64,000 nucleotides of DNA from Minisyncoccota bacterium (GCA_035541435.1 DATKNL010000012.1:70498-134497); one strand, 5' to 3'; positions 4,394 through 58,256 are shown, counted from the stretch's first letter. The notes: generated by a model from the sequence alone, not told the origin. Program-made: numbers and translations.

Positions 4394-5756
4394 GCGAACG
4401 GCGACCCCTCAGCCTCTTGTGATACCCGATGGCGAATCGGTGCGCCTCGTCGCGCACCCGCACGAGCGTCTCTTTGGTGACGCCCTTCGGGATGGCGCCG
4501 ATCACGTCGTTGCGCTTGCGTTCGGCGCCCTTCGCGATGCCGAGGATCGGGATCCTGAGGCCGGCGCGCAGGATCACCTTCTTCGCCGCGTTCGCCTGCG
4601 CGACGCCGCCGTCGATCAGGATGAGGTCGGGCAGGCGCCAGGCGTCCGGCTCGACGGTGCCGTCCCTGCCGACGCGCGCGCGTTCCCCTGCGGAATCATC
4701 CGCGATTCCCTTCCGAAGCCAGTCCTTCGGCCGCGTCGACGGCGCGTGGCGGGAAAACCGCCGCTCGAGCACCTCGGTCAGCATGCCGACGTCGTTCGGC
4801 TGGAAGATGCTCCTGATCCTGAATTTTCGGTATTCGTTCTTGTTCGGTTCGCCATCCTCGAAGACCACCATCGATCCTACGGCGTCGGTTCCCGAAATAT
4901 TCGAAATGTCATAGCCCTCGATGCGATAGGGCTCGGCGCGGTCCTCGCCCGGCGCACCGCGGCCGCGGCCGTCCTTCGACATGGCCGGGCCGGCGACGAT
5001 CGGCGAATCAGAAATGAAGGCTGTGTCGCGGATGTGCCGCAGCGAGAAAAGCTGGCGGCGCAGCTTCTCGGCCTTCTCGAAATCAAGACGCCTGCTCGCG
5101 GCCTTCATGTCGTCCTCGAACGACCTGATCACGCTCTTCTTGCGCCCTTCGAGGAAGAGCCGCAGGCGCCCGATGGTGCGCGCATATTCGCGCTGCGAGA
5201 CGGCGCCGATGCACGTTCCGGGACAGAGCCCGACTTCATAATCGAAGCAGGGACGCCTGAACGTGCCGATGGTTTCGGGGTCGTGGGTGTTCCACGGGAA
5301 GATCCTGCGCAGGATGCGCAGCGCCTCGCGGGCGCTGTGGGCGGACGTGAACGGCCCGAACCGGCGGCCGCGGCCGAGGCCCCGCTTCACGGCATCGGCG
5401 TTCGGCGTCCCGCGCACGAGCAGCACGCGCGGAAACTTCTCCTTCGTGATCTCAATATAGAGGAAGCTCTTGTCGTCCTTTTCGCGCACGTTGAACGGCG
5501 GTTCGTATTTCTTGATGAGCTCGGCCTCGAGGATCAGCGCCTCGAGCGCGCTGTCGGTCGGACGGTAGTCGACCGAGCGGATGAGCTCGACAAGCCGCTC
5601 GATGCGCACGTCGTGCGGCCGCTCGAAATAGCTCGAAACGCGCCGGCGCAGGTTCGCGGCCTTGCCGACGTACAGGATGCCGCCCCCTTCGCCCTTCATA
5701 AGATAAACGCCCGGCGTGTCCGGGAGTTTTTTGTATGGGATATCGGTCTTAACCAT
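4383..5756 (-). CDS. uvrC: Excinuclease ABC subunit C (short form, apparently lacking C-terminal HhH2 domain)
   Basis: 457 aa; N-terminal GIY-YIG (GVYLMKGEGGGILYVGKAANLRRRVSSYF), UvrBC-interaction region, ends at RVRDEAHRFAIGYHKRLRGRR endonuclease motif. Confidence 0.85.
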   Translation of the reverse strand: MVKTDIPYKKLPDTPGVYLMKGEGGGILYVGKAANLRRRVSSYFERPHDVRIERLVELIRSVDYRPTDSALEALILEAELIKKYEPPFNVREKDDKSFLYIEITKEKFPRVLLVRGTPNADAVKRGLGRGRRFGPFTSAHSAREALRILRRIFPWNTHDPETIGTFRRPCFDYEVGLCPGTCIGAVSQREYARTIGRLRLFLEGRKKSVIRSFEDDMKAASRRLDFEKAEKLRRQLFSLRHIRDTAFISDSPIVAGPAMSKDGRGRGAPGEDRAEPYRIEGYDISNISGTDAVGSMVVFEDGEPNKNEYRKFRIRSIFQPNDVGMLTEVLERRFSRHAPSTRPKDWLRKGIADDSAGERARVGRDGTVEPDAWRLPDLILIDGGVAQANAAKKVILRAGLRIPILGIAKGAERKRNDVIGAIPKGVTKETLVRVRDEAHRFAIGYHKRLRGRRSLSS

Positions 5757-31162: not shown

Positions 31163-32195
31163 CTACCGTTCGAGCATCGCTTCGATGAAGCGATCGATAT
31201 CCCCCGCAAGCACTTCGTCGACGCGCGACGTCTCGACGTCGGTGCGGTGATCCTTCACGAGCTGGTACGGGTTGAGCACGTACGAGCGAATCTGGTTCCC
31301 CCACTCCGGCTTCACCTTCGTGCGCAGTGCGCCGACCTCCTCGACCTTCTCCTTTTCCATCAGCTGGAACAGTTTCGCCTTGAGCAGACGCATCGCGTTC
31401 TCGCGGTTCTGCTGCTGGCTCCGCTCGACGCGCGAACTCACCGCGATGCCAGTCGGCAGGTGCACGATCCGCACGGCGGTCTCCACCTTGTTCACGTTCT
31501 GGCCGCCCGGACCGCCGGCGCGGGAGAGCTCGAGTTTGAGATCCGATTCGGGGATGACGAGCTTCGACTCCTCGAGCGGCGGCAGGTCGGGAACGACCTC
31601 GACGAGCGCGAACGACGTATGGCGCAGCTTTTTCGGGGAGAACGGCGAGATGCGGACCAGGCGGTGCACGCCCGATTCGTGCTTCAGATAGCCGAAAGCG
31701 TGGTCGCCCTTGATCTCGATCGTGCGCGAGCGGATGTTGTCGTCGATCACGCGGATCTTCCAGCCCCGGGCCTTGGCATAGCCTTCGTACATGACACCGA
31801 GCATCCGCGCCCAGTCCTCGGCGTCCTCGCCGCCCGCTCCCGGAAAGACCGACAGCACCGCCGCCTGGGCGTCATAGCGCCCGGTGAACAGCTCGTCGCG
31901 CTCGAATTCGCGGAACATCCGCTTGATCTCGTGGAAGCGGTCCTCGAAGCCGGGGTCGTTCGCCTCAAGTTCGAGAATGCCGTCCTCGATCGCCTTGAAC
32001 TTCGCGATCTTGTCGTTCAGCACGCCCAGCTCGCGGATCTTCGCGTCGGCCGCCTCGCGATTCTTCCAGAATTCCGGCGACGACATTTCCGCCGTCAGTT
32101 CTCCGGCGCGGCGCTCCTTCGCCGGAATGTCAAAGACGCCCGCCGAGCCGGCGGGCTTCGTCCTTCAGCTGCTCAAGCGATTCGATGGTCTTCAT
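31163..32195 (-). CDS. prfB: Peptide chain release factor 2, with programmed +1 ribosomal frameshift (CTT TGA C at ~32135..32129)
   Basis: Track ORF 31163..32086 carries SPF and GGQ motifs; upstream frame-0 ATG at 32195 encodes [21 protein letters not shown] then in-frame TGA; shifting +1 at CUU-UGA-C joins the main frame; SD-like GGCGGG 3 nt upstream of CUU. Confidence 0.85.
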
Positions 32196-32208: not shown

Positions 32209-32514
32209 TCAATAGGAAACCGGCTTTTCTTTGTCGAGACGCTCGTCGGCCGACATGTTCCGGTGATGCTTCTCCATGCGGAACCGAAGCTCGGCCAGAT
32301 CCCACTCGATATCGTCGGCGTCCTTGCCTTTGACGACATGGCCTTCGGCGACGGCGGCTTTCGCCATCCGGTCGATCACCGCGAGCTCTTCCGCCGTATA
32401 ACCCGCCCTGCGCTGCTCCCGCTTTTCGCGTTCGCGCGCCTTGCGCGCTTCCATCGCCTTGCGCAACGCCTCGACGTCACCGCCTCGTTCGGGCAACGGC
32501 ATCCGTTCGTTCAT
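32209..32514 (-). CDS. Hypothetical highly charged protein (~101 aa)
   Basis: Track ORF trimmed to ATG (MNERMPLPERGG...) so it does not overlap tRNA-Thr. Confidence 0.4.
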   Translation of the reverse strand: MNERMPLPERGGDVEALRKAMEARKAREREKREQRRAGYTAEELAVIDRMAKAAVAEGHVVKGKDADDIEWDLAELRFRMEKHHRNMSADERLDKEKPVSY

Positions 32515-32536
32515 GGTTTCAGTATAGCACCTATAT

Positions 32537-32609
32537 GAGCCGATGAGAGGAGTTGAACCTCCAACCTCTCCCTTACGAAGGGATTGCTCTGCCATTGAGC
32601 TACATCGGC
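32537..32609 (-). tRNA. tRNA-Thr (anticodon CGT)
   Basis: Reverse complement folds: acceptor GCCGATG/CATCGGC, D-arm GCTC-AATGGCA-GAGC, anticodon loop TTCGTAA, T-loop TTCAACT. Confidence 0.7.
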
Positions 32610-32612
32610 ATG

Positions 32613-32683
32613 TGGACCTAGCGAGAATCGAACTCGCGTCTTTTCGATGCCATCGAAATATTCTACCATTGAACTATAGGCCC
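32613..32683 (-). tRNA. tRNA-Ala (anticodon GGC)
   Basis: Reverse complement: acceptor GGGCCTA/TAGGTCC with G3:U70 Ala identity pair, anticodon stem TTTCG/CGAAA loop ATGGCAT, T-arm GCGAG-TTCGATT-CTCGC. Confidence 0.7.
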
Positions 32684-33360
32684 TGGCCGAACAAATTCCT
32701 GATTACCTCCAGCTCATTATATATTTCCGTCGAGAAATAATCTACCTTGAAAACGCCCTTATAGTCAATTTTCCGTGTCGGTTTTCCGATCGTGCGCGGA
32801 TCGATCCTGCTTTTATAGAGTTGCCGCGGCGGTATGCTTGAAACCGCAGACCAATACCGTTCCAGCGCTGCAATATCCTGATCGGCACGGCACTGCACGG
32901 TTCCCCTGAACTTTGCCTCATCGAGACGATAACATTTTCTCAAAAGCAATAGGTAGGTTCTTATCAAGGCGGGGTCTGAGTTGCCAAGCGTGAGATTCCG
33001 ACAGCTCTTGCCGCCCTCGCACCAGTAGATCATGGCGAGGGATATCTTGGCTACGTCATCATTTTTCGCCACGTCGATCAAATAGCTGGATCGCGAACGA
33101 ATTTCGTCATCCCGAAGAATGCCAATTTTTCGACGTGAAATAACCGATTTCGCACGTGCAATCAGCAATTTCTTTTTTAAACGTTCTGCCAATTTCCCTC
33201 GTTCCTCATCTGACAATTCAAGTTCCGAAAGCCAATCGGACAACGTGCCCCGGGGGATTGCCACCCCGAGCACCGCTCTGATGTCGGCATAAGAGTTACC
33301 TTCGCGGCGAAGCGCGATGGCGCGTTCCTTGTATTCGCTGAATCGTTGCCGTAATTTCAT
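32674..33360 (-). CDS. Hypothetical HTH-domain protein, lower GC (~50%); N-terminal resolvase/transposase-type HTH (ALRREGNSYADIRAVLGVAIPRGTLSDWL)
   Basis: 228 aa track ORF; stop codon overlaps 5' end of tRNA-Ala by ~10 nt; composition atypical for the window. Confidence 0.5.
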   Translation of the reverse strand: MKLRQRFSEYKERAIALRREGNSYADIRAVLGVAIPRGTLSDWLSELELSDEERGKLAERLKKKLLIARAKSVISRRKIGILRDDEIRSRSSYLIDVAKNDDVAKISLAMIYWCEGGKSCRNLTLGNSDPALIRTYLLLLRKCYRLDEAKFRGTVQCRADQDIAALERYWSAVSSIPPRQLYKSRIDPRTIGKPTRKIDYKGVFKVDYFSTEIYNELEVIRNLFGQGL

Positions 33361-33434
33361 CTTTCAATCATCATTCTAACCCGCCTCCCATGCAACATTT
33401 CTTTTAGAAATTTTTAATGATTAGAAAGAGCGGG

Positions 33435-33463
33435 TTGCCCCTTCGGCGGCGATCCTCTATAGT
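33435..33463 (+). promoter_or_regulatory. Candidate promoter TTGCCC-N17-TATAGT for tRNA-Arg(CCT)
   Basis: Read directly; -10 ends 11 nt before tRNA 5' end. Confidence 0.3.
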
Positions 33464-33474
33464 GAACCCGTATC

Positions 33475-33546
33475 GCCCTCGTAGTTCAACGGATAGAACT
33501 ATTCCGTCCTAAGGAAGAGATGGGGGTTCAATTCCCTCCGAGGGCA
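33475..33546 (+). tRNA. tRNA-Arg (anticodon CCT)
   Basis: Acceptor GCCCTCG/CGAGGGC perfect, D-arm GTTC-AACGGATA-GAAC, anticodon loop GTCCTAA, T-loop TTCAATT. Confidence 0.75.
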
Positions 33547-33656
33547 CAGTCTGGGAAGTCCTTTCGGGAACCGCGTCGCGGCCTGCTGGCCGCGCGCTTT
33601 CTCTCGCCGCCTCCGCGGCTCCGAGGCATTCCCGAAAGGACTTCCCAGCCTGTGCC
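33543..33656. repeat. Large imperfect palindrome: 28-bp arms GGCACAG(t/g)CTGGGAAGTCCTTTCGGGAA separated by 58-nt GC-rich spacer with nested hairpins; left arm begins in the tRNA-Arg 3' end
   Basis: Arms compared base by base, 27/28 complementary. Confidence 0.6.
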
Positions 33657-33788
33657 TTGTGCGATGTAATCGAACGGGAATCTTGACGTATCCCCATCTT
33701 CATCCTAGGGTGAAGATGCTTTTCCGCGAATACCGGGAAGCCCTGCGGAATCCCGCAGGAACGTTCGTTTACAAGAAAGGTGAATCAC

Positions 33789-34298
33789 ATGTCTGCGAAT
33801 ACCAGACCGGCGAAAGATACCACAAAGAAAGTCGAACTCTGCCTGCTTTTCACCAATGCCGTTGGGCTCATCGAGAAGGGCGCCCGTTCGACGATCATGA
33901 TCGACGAACTTCTCAGCGCGCTTCAGCTGTTTAAGCAGGGTAAGCTGGGAACCGTACTCCCCATGGCTTCGGAATACTCGCTGCGGGGCGTATTGGAACG
34001 GCGCTTAGCCACCCGTCAGAAGATGAGAATGATCGGAACGGAAGCCATCTACGAAGAGATACTCGACCGGCTACCTAAGCGTATCCAGAGAGGCCTCGCC
34101 TATGCCGGTATCCGAACTCTCCAACAACTCCTTGAGAACGATCCGTTCAATTTCCAAAAGATAAAGGGCCTCGGAGAAAGGTCGGTCGACACGATCGAAG
34201 AAACGTTGAGAGGGTATGGAATTGGACTCCGCATGGATGCCGACGCGCTCCGCCAGCTTTTCTCTGGCATCGGATCGGGACCGCTCGCCGCTTCGTAA
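33789..34298 (+). CDS. Hypothetical HhH protein resembling RNA polymerase alpha C-terminal domain, lower GC (~53%)
   Basis: LPKRIQRGLAYAGIRTLQQLLENDPFNFQKIKGLGERSVDTIEETLRGYG matches the alphaCTD HhH pattern. Confidence 0.5.
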   Translation: MSANTRPAKDTTKKVELCLLFTNAVGLIEKGARSTIMIDELLSALQLFKQGKLGTVLPMASEYSLRGVLERRLATRQKMRMIGTEAIYEEILDRLPKRIQRGLAYAGIRTLQQLLENDPFNFQKIKGLGERSVDTIEETLRGYGIGLRMDADALRQLFSGIGSGPLAAS

Positions 34299-34319
34299 TC
34301 ACCTTTCACGTTCGGATTC

Positions 34320-34350
34320 GGCCGTTCTTCGGAACGGCCATTTTGTTTAT
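34320..34350 (+). terminator. Rho-independent terminator GGCCGTTC-TTCG-GAACGGCC + ATTTTGTTTAT
   Basis: Read directly, downstream of alphaCTD-like gene. Confidence 0.55.
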
Positions 34351-34469
34351 GACGATTCGCCCGAAGAAATCCATTCGAGGGCTCTCGGAGCTCGCGAAGG
34401 CGAGCGAGAGCTGAGCAGTTTTGCGCAACAGCGCAAAACTGCGTACCTCGAAAAGAAAGAGGGAGGGGG

Positions 34470-35570
<1,101 letters not shown>

Positions 35571-55983: not shown

Positions 55984-56008
55984 GTCATCAAATCGATCGT
56001 GCAACGCA

Positions 56009-56036
56009 TTGACATCTTTCGGCCGTTTTCTAGAGT
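56009..56036 (+). promoter_or_regulatory. Cassette-1 promoter TTGACA-N16-TAGAGT (homologous to cassette-2 promoter)
   Basis: gcattgacatctttcggccgttttctagagt vs gcattgacatccatagtcggttttctagaat. Confidence 0.55.
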
Positions 56037-56058
56037 GAAGGGAGCGTGGAGGATATTT

Positions 56059-56199
56059 ATGGATGCTTGGCTTGCGGAAGTTCTTCAGGAAGCCCACGAA
56101 GAAGTGGAAAAATGGCCTTCGTGGCGTAGAGATCCAGAATTCGCGAATGAGCGAACGCCCGAGCTAAATTCCAGCGAACTGGAACGAGTCGCCAACTAA
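56059..56199 (+). CDS. Micro-ORF 1 (46 aa, acidic): MDAWLAEVLQEAHEEVEKWPSWRRDPEFANERTPELNSSELERVAN
   Basis: GGAGG SD 6 nt upstream, own promoter and terminator; below the ORF-track length cutoff. Confidence 0.4.
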   Translation: MDAWLAEVLQEAHEEVEKWPSWRRDPEFANERTPELNSSELERVAN

Positions 56200-56203
56200 C
56201 CAA

Positions 56204-56245
56204 CCCCTCTGAGGATTGAATCCGCGGAGGGGCTTTTCTTTTTTG
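56204..56245 (+). terminator. Terminator T1 CCCCTCTG...CGCGGAGGGG + CTTTTCTTTTTT (homologous to T2)
   Basis: Read directly. Confidence 0.55.
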
Positions 56246-56390
56246 AAAGCAGCTGAGCCTTGTTAAAAAATCGTCGTGTGGACCATCTAAGCGGATGGAT
56301 CGAACGTGGGAAGCGCTGATATGATTGCTTCTCAAAGCAAACGTTTGTTACGAGTGAAGGATTGCGCTGAGGTAGTCCCGCCGCATGGAA

Positions 56391-56414
56391 AACCCCACCG
56401 TATCAGGTGGGGTT
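56391..56414. terminator. Hairpin AACCCCACC-N6-GGTGGGGTT overlapping stop codon of HTH gene
   Basis: Read directly; weak U-tracts on both strands. Confidence 0.35.
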
Positions 56415-56696
56415 TGTTTTGGGCCGTTTCTTGGTTTCTACGTTTCTTGCGAGGAACCGCTCCGCGGTCTCGGCCGTAAAATCGATCTCGAGAGTCGCGG
56501 AGATTGCCCGGTGGACCTCCTTCGCGTTGAACAGGGTCTTGCCGTTCGGGGCGGTCAGGGGCTTGAGTTCTGCGAGCGGTGGGGGCCACGGCGATTCGCC
56601 GGCGACCCATCTCTGCAGCGTGCGCAGGCAGACGCCGAGCAGTGCCGCCGTCTCCTCGCAGGAATAGAACGCGAGGTCGTCGCCGTATTTCAGCAT
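56403..56696 (-). CDS. Excisionase/AlpA/MerR-type HTH (HTH_17-like) DNA-binding protein
   Basis: 97 aa; YSCEETAALLGVCLRTLQRWVAGE matches excisionase-family HTH. Confidence 0.6.
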   Translation of the reverse strand: MLKYGDDLAFYSCEETAALLGVCLRTLQRWVAGESPWPPPLAELKPLTAPNGKTLFNAKEVHRAISATLEIDFTAETAERFLARNVETKKRPKTNPT

Positions 56697-56766
56697 GGGA
56701 TTCCTTTGGTGGAGGGCTGGCTAGACTATATGGCGCGAAACGATATGTGTCCAGGCTGCGGGTGCA

Positions 56767-56794
56767 TTGACATCCATAGTCGGTTTTCTAGAAT
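56767..56794 (+). promoter_or_regulatory. Cassette-2 promoter TTGACA-N16-TAGAAT; -10 overlaps palindrome TTCTAGAA
   Basis: Read directly. Confidence 0.55.
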
Positions 56795-56816
56795 AAGTAA
56801 AGCATAAGGGGGACAA

Positions 56817-56993
56817 ATGCGAACTACGCTTATCGCGTTTCGAACCATAAAGCGTCTGCCGAAGCCGTCGATGGAAGGCAATTCTGTTTATACGCTTGGC
56901 AAGAAAAAGCCCAGCAGCGAGTTGACGCCTCTCGACGTTCCGCCGGGAATGGACCCGGACGATTTCGCCCTCGATTCATGAGTGCGAGTTAGT
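56817..56993 (+). CDS. Micro-ORF 2 (58 aa, basic): MRTTLIAFRTIKRLPKPSMEGNSVYTLGKKKPSSELTPLDVPAGNGPGRFRPRFMSAS
   Basis: AAGGGGG SD 4 nt upstream; own promoter and terminator; weak SSEL similarity to micro-ORF 1. Confidence 0.35.
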
Positions 56994-57004
56994 GCATTCC
57001 TAAC

Positions 57005-57043
57005 CCTCTGCAGGCAAAATCTGCGGAGGGATTTTCTTTTTTA
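57005..57043 (+). terminator. Terminator T2 CCCTCTGCAG-N7-CTGCGGAGGG + ATTTTCTTTTTT
   Basis: Read directly. Confidence 0.55.
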
Positions 57044-57054
57044 AGCTTCGGTTG

Positions 57055-57090
57055 AAAAAATTCCCTGCATAGAGTTCTATGCAGGGAATG
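57055..57090 (-). terminator. Terminator: 14-bp perfect inverted repeat ATTCCCTGCATAGA / TCTATGCAGGGAAT with U6 on minus strand
   Basis: Read directly; convergent with T2. Confidence 0.55.
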
Positions 57091-57093
57091 GTC

Positions 57094-57834
57094 CTATCGG
57101 GCAAAAACCCAAGGGGTTTTACTGCGGATAGAGTTAAGTTCGCCGAGGAAACAAGCCCCAAGAGATGGCTGCCCCCTCTGATGGTTGAGTACGAGAATCA
57201 CCGACCTGGGCCGCCGATAGATCTTGATTGGGCTCATCCCGACATAAACGTACGATGCGGTGCCCGCGTTGAGCGTGGGCTGTTCGGGGTATTGGAGTCT
57301 CAGGAAGGGCACCACCTCGGCCGGGACCGGCTTCAGGCCGTGCGCCGCCGCGGCTTCGTGGACCGTCTTGCCGTTCGTGTACTCCTTCGTAATGCCGAGC
57401 TCGGCCGGGAAAGCGAGCACGCACTCCGCGCTCATTGGACGGTCGAAGCTGAGCGTCGCGAGCGCATGTCTGGCCCGTCCATAGACGAGGAAGCCTTGAG
57501 CCAGGAGTTCGGCGACGAGCTCCTCGCCGGAGCCGCGCACCTGCGTGCGCACCGTCTTCCAGACCGGAAACGGCGGCCGCTGCGGATCAACCGCCACGGG
57601 GATCCAACACGGCTCTCTGCGGAGGAATTTCTCGAATTCTCCTCCCCAGGCCTCGGCATCGTCTCCCAGCAGGTTGGTCACGAGTTGCTTGAACGCCCCG
57701 TCGAAGCGGCAAAGCGTCTCACCGATCACGCTTTTCATGGTCAGCGCTACCTTTCTGCCGGGGACTACGATCCGTAGCCGCAGCCGCAAAACTCCGATGG
57801 GGGCTTTGTGGCTGCGGCCAGAACCCGCTGGCAA
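57094..57834 (-). CDS. Hypothetical protein (214-246 aa depending on start)
   Basis: Track ORF; driven by consensus promoter at 57898-57926; no family recognised. Confidence 0.5.
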   Translation of the reverse strand: MPAGSGRSHKAPIGVLRLRLRIVVPGRKVALTMKSVIGETLCRFDGAFKQLVTNLLGDDAEAWGGEFEKFLRREPCWIPVAVDPQRPPFPVWKTVRTQVRGSGEELVAELLAQGFLVYGRARHALATLSFDRPMSAECVLAFPAELGITKEYTNGKTVHEAAAAHGLKPVPAEVVPFLRLQYPEQPTLNAGTASYVYVGMSPIKIYRRPRSVILVLNHQRGQPSLGACFLGELNSIRSKTPWVFAR

Positions 57835-57897
57835 CCTAGAGCGCTCGCCTCGAACGACTTATTTGTAGGGAAAATAAACCAACGATGAACTGTGCAA

Positions 57898-57926
57898 ATT
57901 ATATCGCATAACGATATATTTGTCAA
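57898..57926 (-). promoter_or_regulatory. Perfect-consensus sigma70 promoter TTGACA-N17-TATAAT
   Basis: Reverse complement reads ttgacaaatatatcgttatgcgatataat. Confidence 0.55.
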
Positions 57927-58001
57927 ATAACTTTCGGCTGGACGTCGGACTGGCCGCAGTCTGCGCGGTCGTGTTTTGATTTATGGTTCGATTTCCGCCG
58001 G

Positions 58002-58072
58002 TGGACCCAGGGAGAATCGGACTCCCGCCTCCGCAATGCGAATGCGGCGTAATACCACTTTACTATGGGCCC
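58002..58072 (-). tRNA. tRNA-Ala (anticodon CGC), slightly atypical T-loop (C at position 55)
   Basis: Reverse complement: acceptor GGGCCCA/TGGGTCC with G3:U70, D-arm GTAA-AGTGGTA-TTAC, anticodon stem CCGCA/TGCGG loop TTCGCAT, T-arm GGGAG-TCCGATT-CTCCC. Confidence 0.55.
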
Positions 58073-58081
58073 GAGTGAGGC

Positions 58082-58219
58082 AAAAATGAATGGTTCTTAA
58101 CTATTCATTTTTGACGAGCGAGGGCACAGGCGGCGAAGCCGCCGGGGCCCGAAGAACAAACAACACATTATCTTCCACGAGCGAGGGCACAGGCGGCGAA
58201 GCCGCCGGGGCCCGAAGAA
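58082..58219. repeat. AT-rich hairpin (AAAAATGAAT-N11-ATTCATTTTT) followed by two identical 43-bp direct repeats (acgagcgagggcacaggcggcgaagccgccggggcccgaagaa) spaced by 20 bp, each forming a GC hairpin
   Basis: Units at ~58114-58156 and ~58177-58219 are identical base for base. Confidence 0.7.
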
Positions 58220-58256
58220 ACAATAGCACCCAACCGGCGCTCTTTCAACATCAGAA

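Follow-up and report, generated by a model that had tools for sequence, protein, structure and literature searches.

A gene family of Patescibacteria that abuts or runs into the 5′ end of tRNA-Ala(GGC), with an orphan gene and a long palindrome as neighbours

This work concerns a cluster of tRNA genes in a 64-kb stretch of DNA (64,000 nucleotides (nt); GCA_035541435.1, DATKNL010000012.1:70498-134497; hereafter the window) from a member of the Patescibacteria (candidate phyla radiation, CPR), and in particular a protein-coding gene, open reading frame (ORF) A, whose stop codon lies inside the gene for tRNA-Ala(GGC). The region is flanked on one side by ftsX, ftsE and prfB together with a small ORF, and on the other by dnaJ, a membrane protein gene and dnaK. 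Between them lie tRNA-Thr(CGT), tRNA-Ala(GGC) and tRNA-Arg(CCT), ORF A, a second gene that we call ORF B, and a 114-nt palindrome. A preliminary description had reported a drop in G+C content (GC) between the tRNA genes, and had read the two protein-coding genes as orphan cargo acquired at a tRNA hotspot, with the palindrome as an attachment site or a structured RNA. The drop is real: in 200-nt windows, GC is 0.46-0.56 within 32500-34500 against ~0.62-0.70 in the surroundings (62% over the whole window), and the three tRNA genes are found by both ARAGORN and Rfam. The sequence from 32611 to 34550 is reproduced at 100% by two contigs of an independent assembly (Logan, run SRR8879131). The features around ORF A are as follows, with lengths of proteins in amino acids (aa).

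32537-32609, minus strand: tRNA-Thr(CGT), by ARAGORN and Rfam (65 bits); downstream partner in the cluster
32612-32683, minus strand: tRNA-Ala(GGC), by ARAGORN and Rfam (67 bits); CCA not encoded; GC 0.47
32674-32683, minus strand: overlap of ORF A and tRNA-Ala, 10 nt; GGC CUA UAG (Gly-Leu-stop) are tRNA positions 2-10, and the stop is U8-A9-G10
32674-33360, minus strand: ORF A, 228 aa; N-terminal helix-turn-helix (HTH) at aa 2-44, long helix at 51-91, C-terminal alpha/beta domain at 101-227
32739-32768, minus strand: promoter-like TTGACT-18-TAGATT within the 3′ portion of ORF A, 55 nt upstream of tRNA-Ala (consensus scan)
33361-33474: divergent intergenic region between ORF A and tRNA-Arg, 114 nt
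33475-33547, plus strand: tRNA-Arg(CCT), by ARAGORN and Rfam; CCA not encoded

ORF A and its link to tRNA-Ala(GGC)

The product of ORF A is identical to the NCBI protein VMT99_03820 (‘Candidatus Paceibacterota bacterium’). Its supposed orphan status is no longer tenable, as more than 500 homologues exist, ~225 aa long and ~45% identical to ORF A, all of them belonging to Patescibacteria, and Pfam recognises no domain in any. Among 1.84 billion cluster representatives (clusters at 50% identity), a profile search returned 340 at E ≤ 1e-30 and 2,549 at E ≤ 1e-10. We collected 80 loci from species-level genomes across many Patescibacteria lineages and 80 from metagenomes, all picked for carrying an ORF A homologue (labels such as L086 denote single loci). 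tRNA-Ala(GGC) lies directly after the homologue, on the same strand, in 155 of these 160 loci (77/80 from genomes and 78/80 from metagenomes). Four of the five remaining loci are truncated where their contig ends, and in the fifth (L044) the tRNA gene lies just upstream. By comparison, other tRNA types in the same loci have a same-strand ORF of at least 150 aa at their 5′ end in ~12% of cases, with 2/90 for Arg(CCT). The unit has no conserved protein-coding neighbour, the commonest one being present in 37/162 loci. tRNA-Arg(CCT) is a frequent but not an obligatory neighbour, found within 1.5 kb of the homologue, in any orientation, in 89/159 loci, and divergent, as here, in 27.

The link extends to the junction itself. 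As the preliminary description had seen, the ORF A stop codon overlaps the 5′ end of tRNA-Ala, the last 10 nt being shared. The stop occupies tRNA positions 8-10, with the same 10-nt overlap, in 74 loci, and positions 13-15, in another frame and with a 15-nt overlap, in ~17; in nearly all remaining loci it lies no more than ~30 nt before the tRNA. With stops inside or at most ~30 nt before tRNA-Ala, there is no intergenic room for a promoter. Thus, since the gene occupies the leader and enters the tRNA, the tRNA would have to be transcribed through or from within ORF A. The promoter-like site at 32739-32768 is a possible internal promoter of tRNA-Ala; its support is weak, and this weakness counts against the details of the co-transcription proposed below. 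This site is encoded by a conserved xDY...xDY motif, some 11 related loci (~11) have similar ones, and the last 60 nt show an enrichment of promoter-like hits. The idea that such a promoter is under synonymous constraint was not upheld, as just a mild codon bias was seen at two codons, I206 and Y208.

Some individual loci deserve mention. In L044 (3808-4663), the sole locus with the ORF A homologue downstream of tRNA-Ala(GGC), the two genes still adjoin, and the tRNA comes with a promoter of its own (TTGACA-17-TACAAT) and with a hairpin terminator. A tRNA with its own consensus promoter where the gene is not upstream fits transcription through or within the ORF elsewhere. The L044 homologue carries the motif YLEGTRK in place of YLGEGSK. 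The closest metagenome relative of ORF A among the matches listed, in L087, is 51% identical, and its reading frame (474-1238) traverses the whole tRNA-Ala gene (1157-1234) before its stop. In several other lineages (L040, L043, L049 and L166), tRNA-Lys(TTT) comes next after dnaJ, and the ORF A-tRNA-Ala unit lies 0.6-2.5 kb further along, so the closeness of dnaJ to the unit recurs beyond the window. The tRNA genes of the window and of L002-L166 have no encoded 3′ CCA, and the three bases after tRNA-Ala(GGC) are mostly A-rich; 3′ maturation must therefore depend on cleavage and CCA addition.

The composition of ORF A could be taken as a sign of recent arrival. GC at third codon positions (GC3) is 0.56 in ORF A and 0.64 in ORF B, against 0.88-0.92 in ftsX, ftsE, prfB, dnaJ and dnaK. 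Over 47 loci, the GC3 of ORF A homologues correlates with GC3 in the flanking genes (r = 0.75, slope 0.51) and without exception falls below it, the mean difference being -0.12; the regression predicts 0.55 for the ORF A of this host, where 0.56 is observed. Thus, the GC dip is a property of the ORF A family. The preliminary description had named conservation at syntenic positions in relatives as what would refute its island, and on that count ORF A does not qualify as recent cargo: it is present at the syntenic site in the relative L086, where the order ORF A, tRNA-Ala (with the 10-nt overlap), tRNA-Thr, small ORF and prfB is the same as in the window. Identity between the two is 88% for release factor 2 (RF2), 100% (73/73) for tRNA-Thr, 56% for ORF A and 66-68% for tRNA-Ala. 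Moreover, ORF A identity tracks the identity of the flank proteins, with r of 0.6-0.84 in seven of eight flank families and 0.13 in the eighth. The regression, the synteny with L086 and the tracking of identity indicate long residence with mostly vertical descent, and point to ORF A and tRNA-Ala as an old unit across Patescibacteria. We consider it very probable that the two form a conserved module, not recent cargo.

The contrast between an identical tRNA-Thr and a divergent tRNA-Ala in L086 raised the idea that ORF A and tRNA-Ala had been replaced as a cassette. We did not retain it, because fast evolution of tRNA-Ala explains the contrast equally: in L030/L142 and similar pairs, tRNA-Ala diverges fast while the flanks are uniformly ~70% identical, so a divergent tRNA-Ala does not require replacement. 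The similarity of tRNA-Ala does not track that of ORF A (r = 0.16). The tRNA-Ala of the window has the lowest GC of the six window tRNAs (0.47; family mean 0.58), and is 93% identical to that of the Liptonbacteria genome L020.

The ORF A protein and homing endonuclease genes at tRNA 5′ ends

The AlphaFold model of ORF A (predicted local distance difference test score, pLDDT, 92.8) consists of a three-helix HTH, with helices at residues 2-19, 24-31 and 37-44, a 40-residue helix and an alpha/beta domain. An N-terminal HTH of the resolvase/transposase type had been proposed before, and it is the family that bears this out: the Pfam match of ORF A itself is weak (E 0.08), but HTH_SB matches 15/30 family members and HTH_23 8/30, HTH_28 matches also occur, and a paralogue in L143 matches HTH_23 with 25.9 bits, above the Pfam cut-off of 24.6. 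Both the profiles and the three-helix bundle are those of a homeodomain-like or transposase-type DNA-binding domain. We infer that ORF A is a sequence-specific DNA-binding protein, and its long helix probably dimerises. An alignment of 30 diverse family members contains 30 invariant residues, and these remain invariant while synonymous sites are saturated. The C-terminal alpha/beta domain is conserved, rich in invariant polar residues and without an assignable fold. It carries a LAGLIDADG-like motif, YWCEGGK...GNSD, which suggested that ORF A is a LAGLIDADG protein; this assignment was supported neither by Pfam nor by hhalign nor by two Foldseek searches.

ORF A is not alone in its position. 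A local iterative search of the fetched loci found seven distant paralogues, each of which ends at the 5′ end of a tRNA gene for Arg(TCT), Gly(GCC) or Arg(CCT). Examples are L103:111-842, L098:1886-2569, L143:4882-5589, L112:2393-3079 and L076:5086-5796, and some loci hold two members of the ORF A family. A fixed position at a conserved target gene, as looked for in a homing endonuclease gene, is what the 155 loci and the paralogues at other tRNA genes display. In these loci, further ORFs adjoin tRNA 5′ ends, among them recognisable homing endonuclease genes: three LAGLIDADG_3 genes score above the Pfam cut-off, and another five ORFs, which represent three distinct genes, have matches to HNH profiles, of which one exceeds the cut-offs while the others fall just short. 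They adjoin tRNA-Phe, tRNA-Ser, tRNA-Leu and tRNA-His. Genes of these two kinds that end within 25 nt of a tRNA 5′ end include L127:2014-3060, L037:7485-8171 (minus strand), L008:7244-7732, L008:2574-3125 and L054:1808-2284 (minus strand), next to Ser(CGA), Leu(TAA) and His(GTG) tRNAs in tRNA clusters of Patescibacteria.

One of these genes also shows presence/absence polymorphism. With an identity of 75-80%, the loci L153 and L158 are collinear apart from 695 bp that are inserted in the former (L153:4819-5539 compared with L158:3638-3690). The insertion is a LAGLIDADG_3 gene (48 bits in Pfam; 4859-5539) located between tRNA-Val(TAC) and tRNA-Phe(GAA), and it ends 21 nt inside tRNA-Phe. This case, together with the other tRNA-abutting LAGLIDADG and HNH genes, indicates that true homing endonuclease genes use the ORF A geometry and are polymorphic. 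From this we infer that the ORF A family lives, or once lived, in the same manner. ORF A would then be homing-endonuclease-like, with a putative nuclease activity, a tentative assignment to which we give slightly less than an even chance.

A number of results weigh against this assignment, or at least against an active selfish element. In Pfam, the ORF A protein has no LAGLIDADG profile match, and just one of 30 family members touches LAGLIDADG_2 (E 0.03). hhalign of ORF A against I-CreI and two LAGLIDADG_3 proteins from the loci gave nothing convincing; against I-DmoI, the expected motif was aligned at E 0.024 but with a probability of 2%. Foldseek searches of the PDB with the full model and with the C-terminal domain returned just OmpA-like domains and IspF at template modelling (TM) scores of at most 0.43, the best being the OmpA-like domains at 0.43, and no nuclease fold. 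In favour of the assignment, the matches of ORF A among predicted structures of viruses, though weak, are headed by a homing endonuclease, with intein-bearing proteins after it. Against an active selfish element, no relative of ORF A was found among 2.9 million viral contigs, and no degraded copy is visible among the 160 loci. In addition, the conservation of ORF A equals or exceeds that of the flanking housekeeping proteins, as would befit a host gene.

The main rival to an active selfish element is a domesticated or purely host function in cis. In its strictest form, ORF A is an ordinary host gene that acts in cis for its tRNA, as a transcription factor, an insulator or a processing factor for the co-transcript, and has never been selfish; we regard this as possible, though less likely than an endonuclease-like nature. 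The level of conservation, the divergence that follows the flanks, the intact state of all 160 copies, the 30 invariant residues, the lack of a nuclease fold in Foldseek against the PDB and the absence from viral contigs all suit such a gene, as does the L044 copy, which has stayed next to tRNA-Ala(GGC) although it lies after it. However, a diffusible factor would have no reason to adjoin its target so exactly, to the nucleotide, in 155 loci in which every other neighbour changes. The family is also of modest size, with ~340 representatives at E ≤ 1e-30, and the 120 best ORF A homologues come from none of the eight large contigs (0.44-0.91 Mb) with the closest DnaJ relatives, which is an indirect hint that these relatives lack the gene. 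Compared with its host, ORF A is biased towards AT, as selfish genes typically are, and its position is exactly the one in which true homing endonuclease genes occur.

On the selfish reading, which we prefer, the gene would live as follows. ORF A would be a gene in the 5′ leader of tRNA-Ala, co-transcribed with the tRNA and running into it. The family may have begun as a site-specific selfish gene that settled between a tRNA gene and its promoter, now being fixed and perhaps domesticated. In this position the gene would be expressed, the tRNA would not be disrupted, and loss would need a precise deletion, with subfamilies specialised on different tRNA genes. Where the stop codon is inside the tRNA, cleavage of the co-transcript by RNase P would yield an mRNA without a stop codon, and synthesis of the protein and maturation of the tRNA from one transcript would be mutually exclusive. 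Against this, ~40% of the family stop before the tRNA, so that the non-stop consequence is not general. A bolder proposal, which we put forward as rather doubtful, is that ORF A and its paralogues make up a superfamily, not described before, whose members are specific for tRNA genes and have a new catalytic fold. They could be homing endonucleases of a new class, directed at the 5′ edge of particular tRNA genes, or they could descend from such enzymes by domestication and need tRNA maturation for their own synthesis.

ORF B, the palindrome and the region as a whole

On the other side of the divergent intergenic region, tRNA-Arg(CCT) is followed by the palindrome and ORF B, with the features listed here.

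33435-33463, plus strand: promoter-like TTGCCC-17-TATAGT for tRNA-Arg (consensus scan)
33543-33656, plus strand: palindrome, 114 nt; arms at 33543-33570 and 33629-33656, 58-nt spacer, two inner hairpins
33577-33604, plus strand: inner terminator-like hairpin CGCGGCC-TGCT-GGCCGCG (stem-loop 33577-33594), then CGCTTTCTCT; passes the terminator scan
33683-33711, plus strand: promoter-like TTGACG-17-TAGGGT ahead of ORF B (read from the sequence)
33777-33782, plus strand: Shine-Dalgarno sequence AGGTGA of ORF B
33789-34298, plus strand: ORF B, 169 aa; RNA polymerase alpha C-terminal (helix-hairpin-helix) domain at aa 98-153
34320-34349, plus strand: canonical intrinsic terminator of ORF B, GGCCGTTC-TTCG-GAACGGCC, then ATTTTGTTTA (terminator scan)
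34408-34449: inverted repeat with 19-nt arms between ORF B and the dnaJ 3′ end, probably the dnaJ terminator

The earlier view of ORF B holds in both of its parts. The protein resembles the C-terminal domain of the RNA polymerase alpha subunit (alpha-CTD), with 27.4 bits against Pfam RNA_pol_A_CTD (PF03118; gathering score 23.8) at aa 98-144 and E 1.4e-4 against alpha-CTD chains of the PDB, and it is an orphan, the search of 5.8 billion proteins returning just ORF B itself. It is not an rpoA gene, since the NCBIfam rpoA models score 12-26 bits with cut-offs of 228-523; the domain alone matches. There was no match in phage or plasmid records and none in the fetched loci. An origin in a phage or plasmid was set aside, ORF B having no match there and ORF A no relative in viral contigs. 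The promoter-like site ahead of ORF B does not appear in the scan output because its second hexamer is weak. ORF B is a lineage-specific orphan with an alpha-CTD-like domain and its own expression signals. In three relatives with DnaJ 78-79% identical, the operon hrcA-grpE-dnaK-membrane protein-dnaJ is kept and what lies downstream of dnaJ is different in each, which places ORF B at a rearrangement point (a synteny break). Since ORF B is compositionally atypical, has no homologues and sits at this break, its half of the region may be of lineage-specific origin, by transfer or otherwise. We also considered these relatives as a guide to the palindrome; as their downstream sides all differ, they are uninformative on it.

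The palindrome has the form given in the preliminary description, with 28-nt arms paired at 27 of 28 positions, a 58-nt spacer and a left arm that begins in the last bases of tRNA-Arg. As RNA it has a minimum free energy of -87.4 kcal/mol (z = -9.15; 0/200 shuffles as stable), and it ranks first in stability among 239 tRNA trailers compared. In related loci, tRNA genes are often followed directly by long perfect hairpins, and in L003 tRNA-Arg(CCT) is followed by a 26-bp stem and a T-run. The palindrome may thus be the 3′ trailer of tRNA-Arg(CCT), a terminator or insulator hairpin, a proposal that we consider evenly balanced. It would stop or insulate tRNA-Arg transcription ahead of ORF B, and block 3′ exonucleases. 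Two of its features count against a terminator: the outer 28-bp stem is followed by CCTTGTGCG, not by a U-tract, and the stem is far longer than those of other terminators in the window.

The main rival to the trailer is a DNA-level repeat, a miniature inverted-repeat transposable element (MITE) or similar, that landed at the 3′ end of tRNA-Arg. A length of 114 nt and terminal inverted repeats of 28 nt would fit the class, and the 10-mer GAGGGCACAG recurs twice in a tandem repeat near tRNA-Ala(CGC), making 3 occurrences against 0.14 expected. However, the inverted repeats come with no visible target-site duplication at the palindrome ends and with a single copy in the 64-kb window, and six single-arm matches in viral contigs are at about chance level, which leaves a MITE unlikely. 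The tandem repeat itself (58107-58229) has two copies with a 63-nt period, 88% identical, of a unit with GAGGGCACAG and the hairpin GGCGGC-GAAG-GCCGCC; it sits just 5′ of tRNA-Ala(CGC) (58000-58072, minus strand). The third occurrence of the 10-mer is the tRNA-Arg(CCT) 3′ end, where the palindrome starts.

It is also possible to ask whether all of 32.5-34.5 kb is a recently acquired islet at a tRNA hotspot, as first suggested, with the palindrome as its attachment or recombination site. The composition is indeed unlike that of the host (GC3 0.56 and 0.64 against 0.88-0.92), ORF B has no homologue anywhere searched, synteny after dnaJ differs in each of the three relatives, and the tRNA-Ala is low in GC (0.47) and just 66-68% identical to that of L086, although the adjoining tRNA-Thr is identical. 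Nevertheless, the pair of ORF A and tRNA-Ala is conserved phylum-wide and keeps its synteny in L086, ORF A falls on the regression line of its family in GC, and a divergent tRNA-Ala needs no replacement, as in L030/L142. Integrases insert at tRNA 3′ ends, whereas the two tRNA genes next to ORF A both face it with their 5′ ends, and neither ORF A nor ORF B matches an integrase or recombinase in Pfam, NCBIfam or PHROGs. The last 23 nt of tRNA-Arg occur once in 64 kb, with up to three mismatches allowed; a candidate second attachment site, a 13/16 match to the tRNA-Arg 3′ end at 34367-34382, was discarded because 231/1000 shuffles were as good. A single islet is thus improbable. Nothing was seen that speaks for an attachment site or a conserved structured RNA in the palindrome, which has neither an Rfam match nor a second copy in the window. 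What survives of the hotspot idea is that tRNA flanks are favoured by selfish genes, as in L153 and L158. Least probable of all is the palindrome as a functional structured RNA, a small RNA or a cis-regulator of ORF B: its nested fold is extremely stable and lies upstream of ORF B, but an Rfam search of 33543-33656 returned no family (the best hit, the microRNA precursor model MIR1094, has 18.4 bits with a gathering score of 80 and E 2.2, which is chance level), the promoter-like site of ORF B is downstream of the palindrome, and a perfect stem of 28 bp would sooner be expected in a DNA repeat or a terminator than in a functional folded RNA.

On balance, we lean towards the region being a composite of three parts, namely the ORF A-tRNA-Ala unit, ORF B and the palindrome, and not one island.

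A few observations concern the wider window. In an Rfam 15 scan of the region, only the three tRNAs pass the gathering score, and PADLOC gave no defence-system match. Lower-GC stretches (0.52-0.58) also occur at 56000-57900, next to tRNA-Ala(CGC), and at 1-1000, next to tRNA-Arg(TCG); the ORFs 56385-56807 and 57079-57834 in the former have no Pfam match. prfB (31163-32086) extends upstream in another frame across CTTTGAC at 32129-32135 (minus strand), which we take to be the classic +1 programmed frameshift site of release factor 2.

Significance and comparison with known systems

Patescibacteria have tiny genomes with many conserved proteins of unknown function, and for the ORF A family there is now an exact and testable genomic rule: its members end at the first bases of tRNA-Ala(GGC), and its paralogues do likewise at other tRNA genes. 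A full-text search of the literature found nothing on the ORF A family or its link with tRNA-Ala, and a phylum-wide fusion of an ORF to a tRNA, with tRNA-specific paralogues, appears to be undescribed. The position shared with recognisable homing endonuclease genes suggests that the tRNA 5′ leader is a general safe harbour for selfish genes in Patescibacteria, one that may also offer them a route to permanent residence. As a nuclease, ORF A would represent a new family whose target sites are long and defined by the tRNA; otherwise, the overlap of coding sequence and tRNA would be a natural system for the study of competition between translation and tRNA processing. For genome scanning, the region makes the case that a sharp GC dip between tRNA genes is not necessarily recent horizontal transfer.

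Among known systems, one of the closest is SegB of phage T4, a free-standing GIY-YIG homing endonuclease gene in a tRNA cluster that cuts the tRNA region of relatives without the gene (PMC2330249). Like ORF A, which is locked to one tRNA gene, SegB is a small stand-alone gene among tRNA genes and is inherited with them. In contrast, ORF A belongs to cellular Patescibacteria and has no copy in viral contigs, lacks a GIY-YIG or other known nuclease domain, so that any cleavage is putative, and is fixed to the nucleotide at the tRNA 5′ end, overlapping the tRNA, with mostly vertical inheritance. Closer in host group are the LAGLIDADG homing endonucleases of Patescibacteria, which are found in rRNA insertions (PMC11270868) and, in our loci, as free-standing LAGLIDADG_3 genes by tRNA-Phe, tRNA-Ser and tRNA-Leu. 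ORF A is like them in host, in size (~228 aa) and in geometry; it differs in lacking support from Pfam, hhalign and Foldseek as a LAGLIDADG protein, in its N-terminal transposase-type HTH and in being far more conserved. Presence/absence polymorphism was seen for the LAGLIDADG gene, whereas the ORF A loci were all chosen for carrying the gene.

What a domesticated ORF A might look like is illustrated by another bacterial protein. WhiA is a domesticated homing-endonuclease scaffold fused to an HTH, and is a conserved, vertically inherited bacterial protein. ORF A resembles it in combining an HTH with an endonuclease-like alpha/beta domain. The two proteins have their domains in opposite order, the C-terminal domain of ORF A is single, no tRNA gene is linked to WhiA, and WhiA was not present among the Foldseek matches of ORF A in the PDB. 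For the overlap with the tRNA, the nearest parallel is tRNA punctuation in mitochondria, where coding sequences abut or overlap tRNAs and excision of the tRNA sets the 3′ end of the mRNA and can remove or complete the stop codon. Here, by contrast, a bacterial chromosome, one gene family and one tRNA are involved, and the processing step is putative. Finally, the palindrome is like intrinsic terminators and the trailer hairpins of tRNAs in starting at the tRNA 3′ end and in its inner 7-bp GC hairpin with a T-rich run. It departs from them in its outer 28-bp stem without a U-tract, in its three-way nested form and in a stability that places it first among the 239 trailers.

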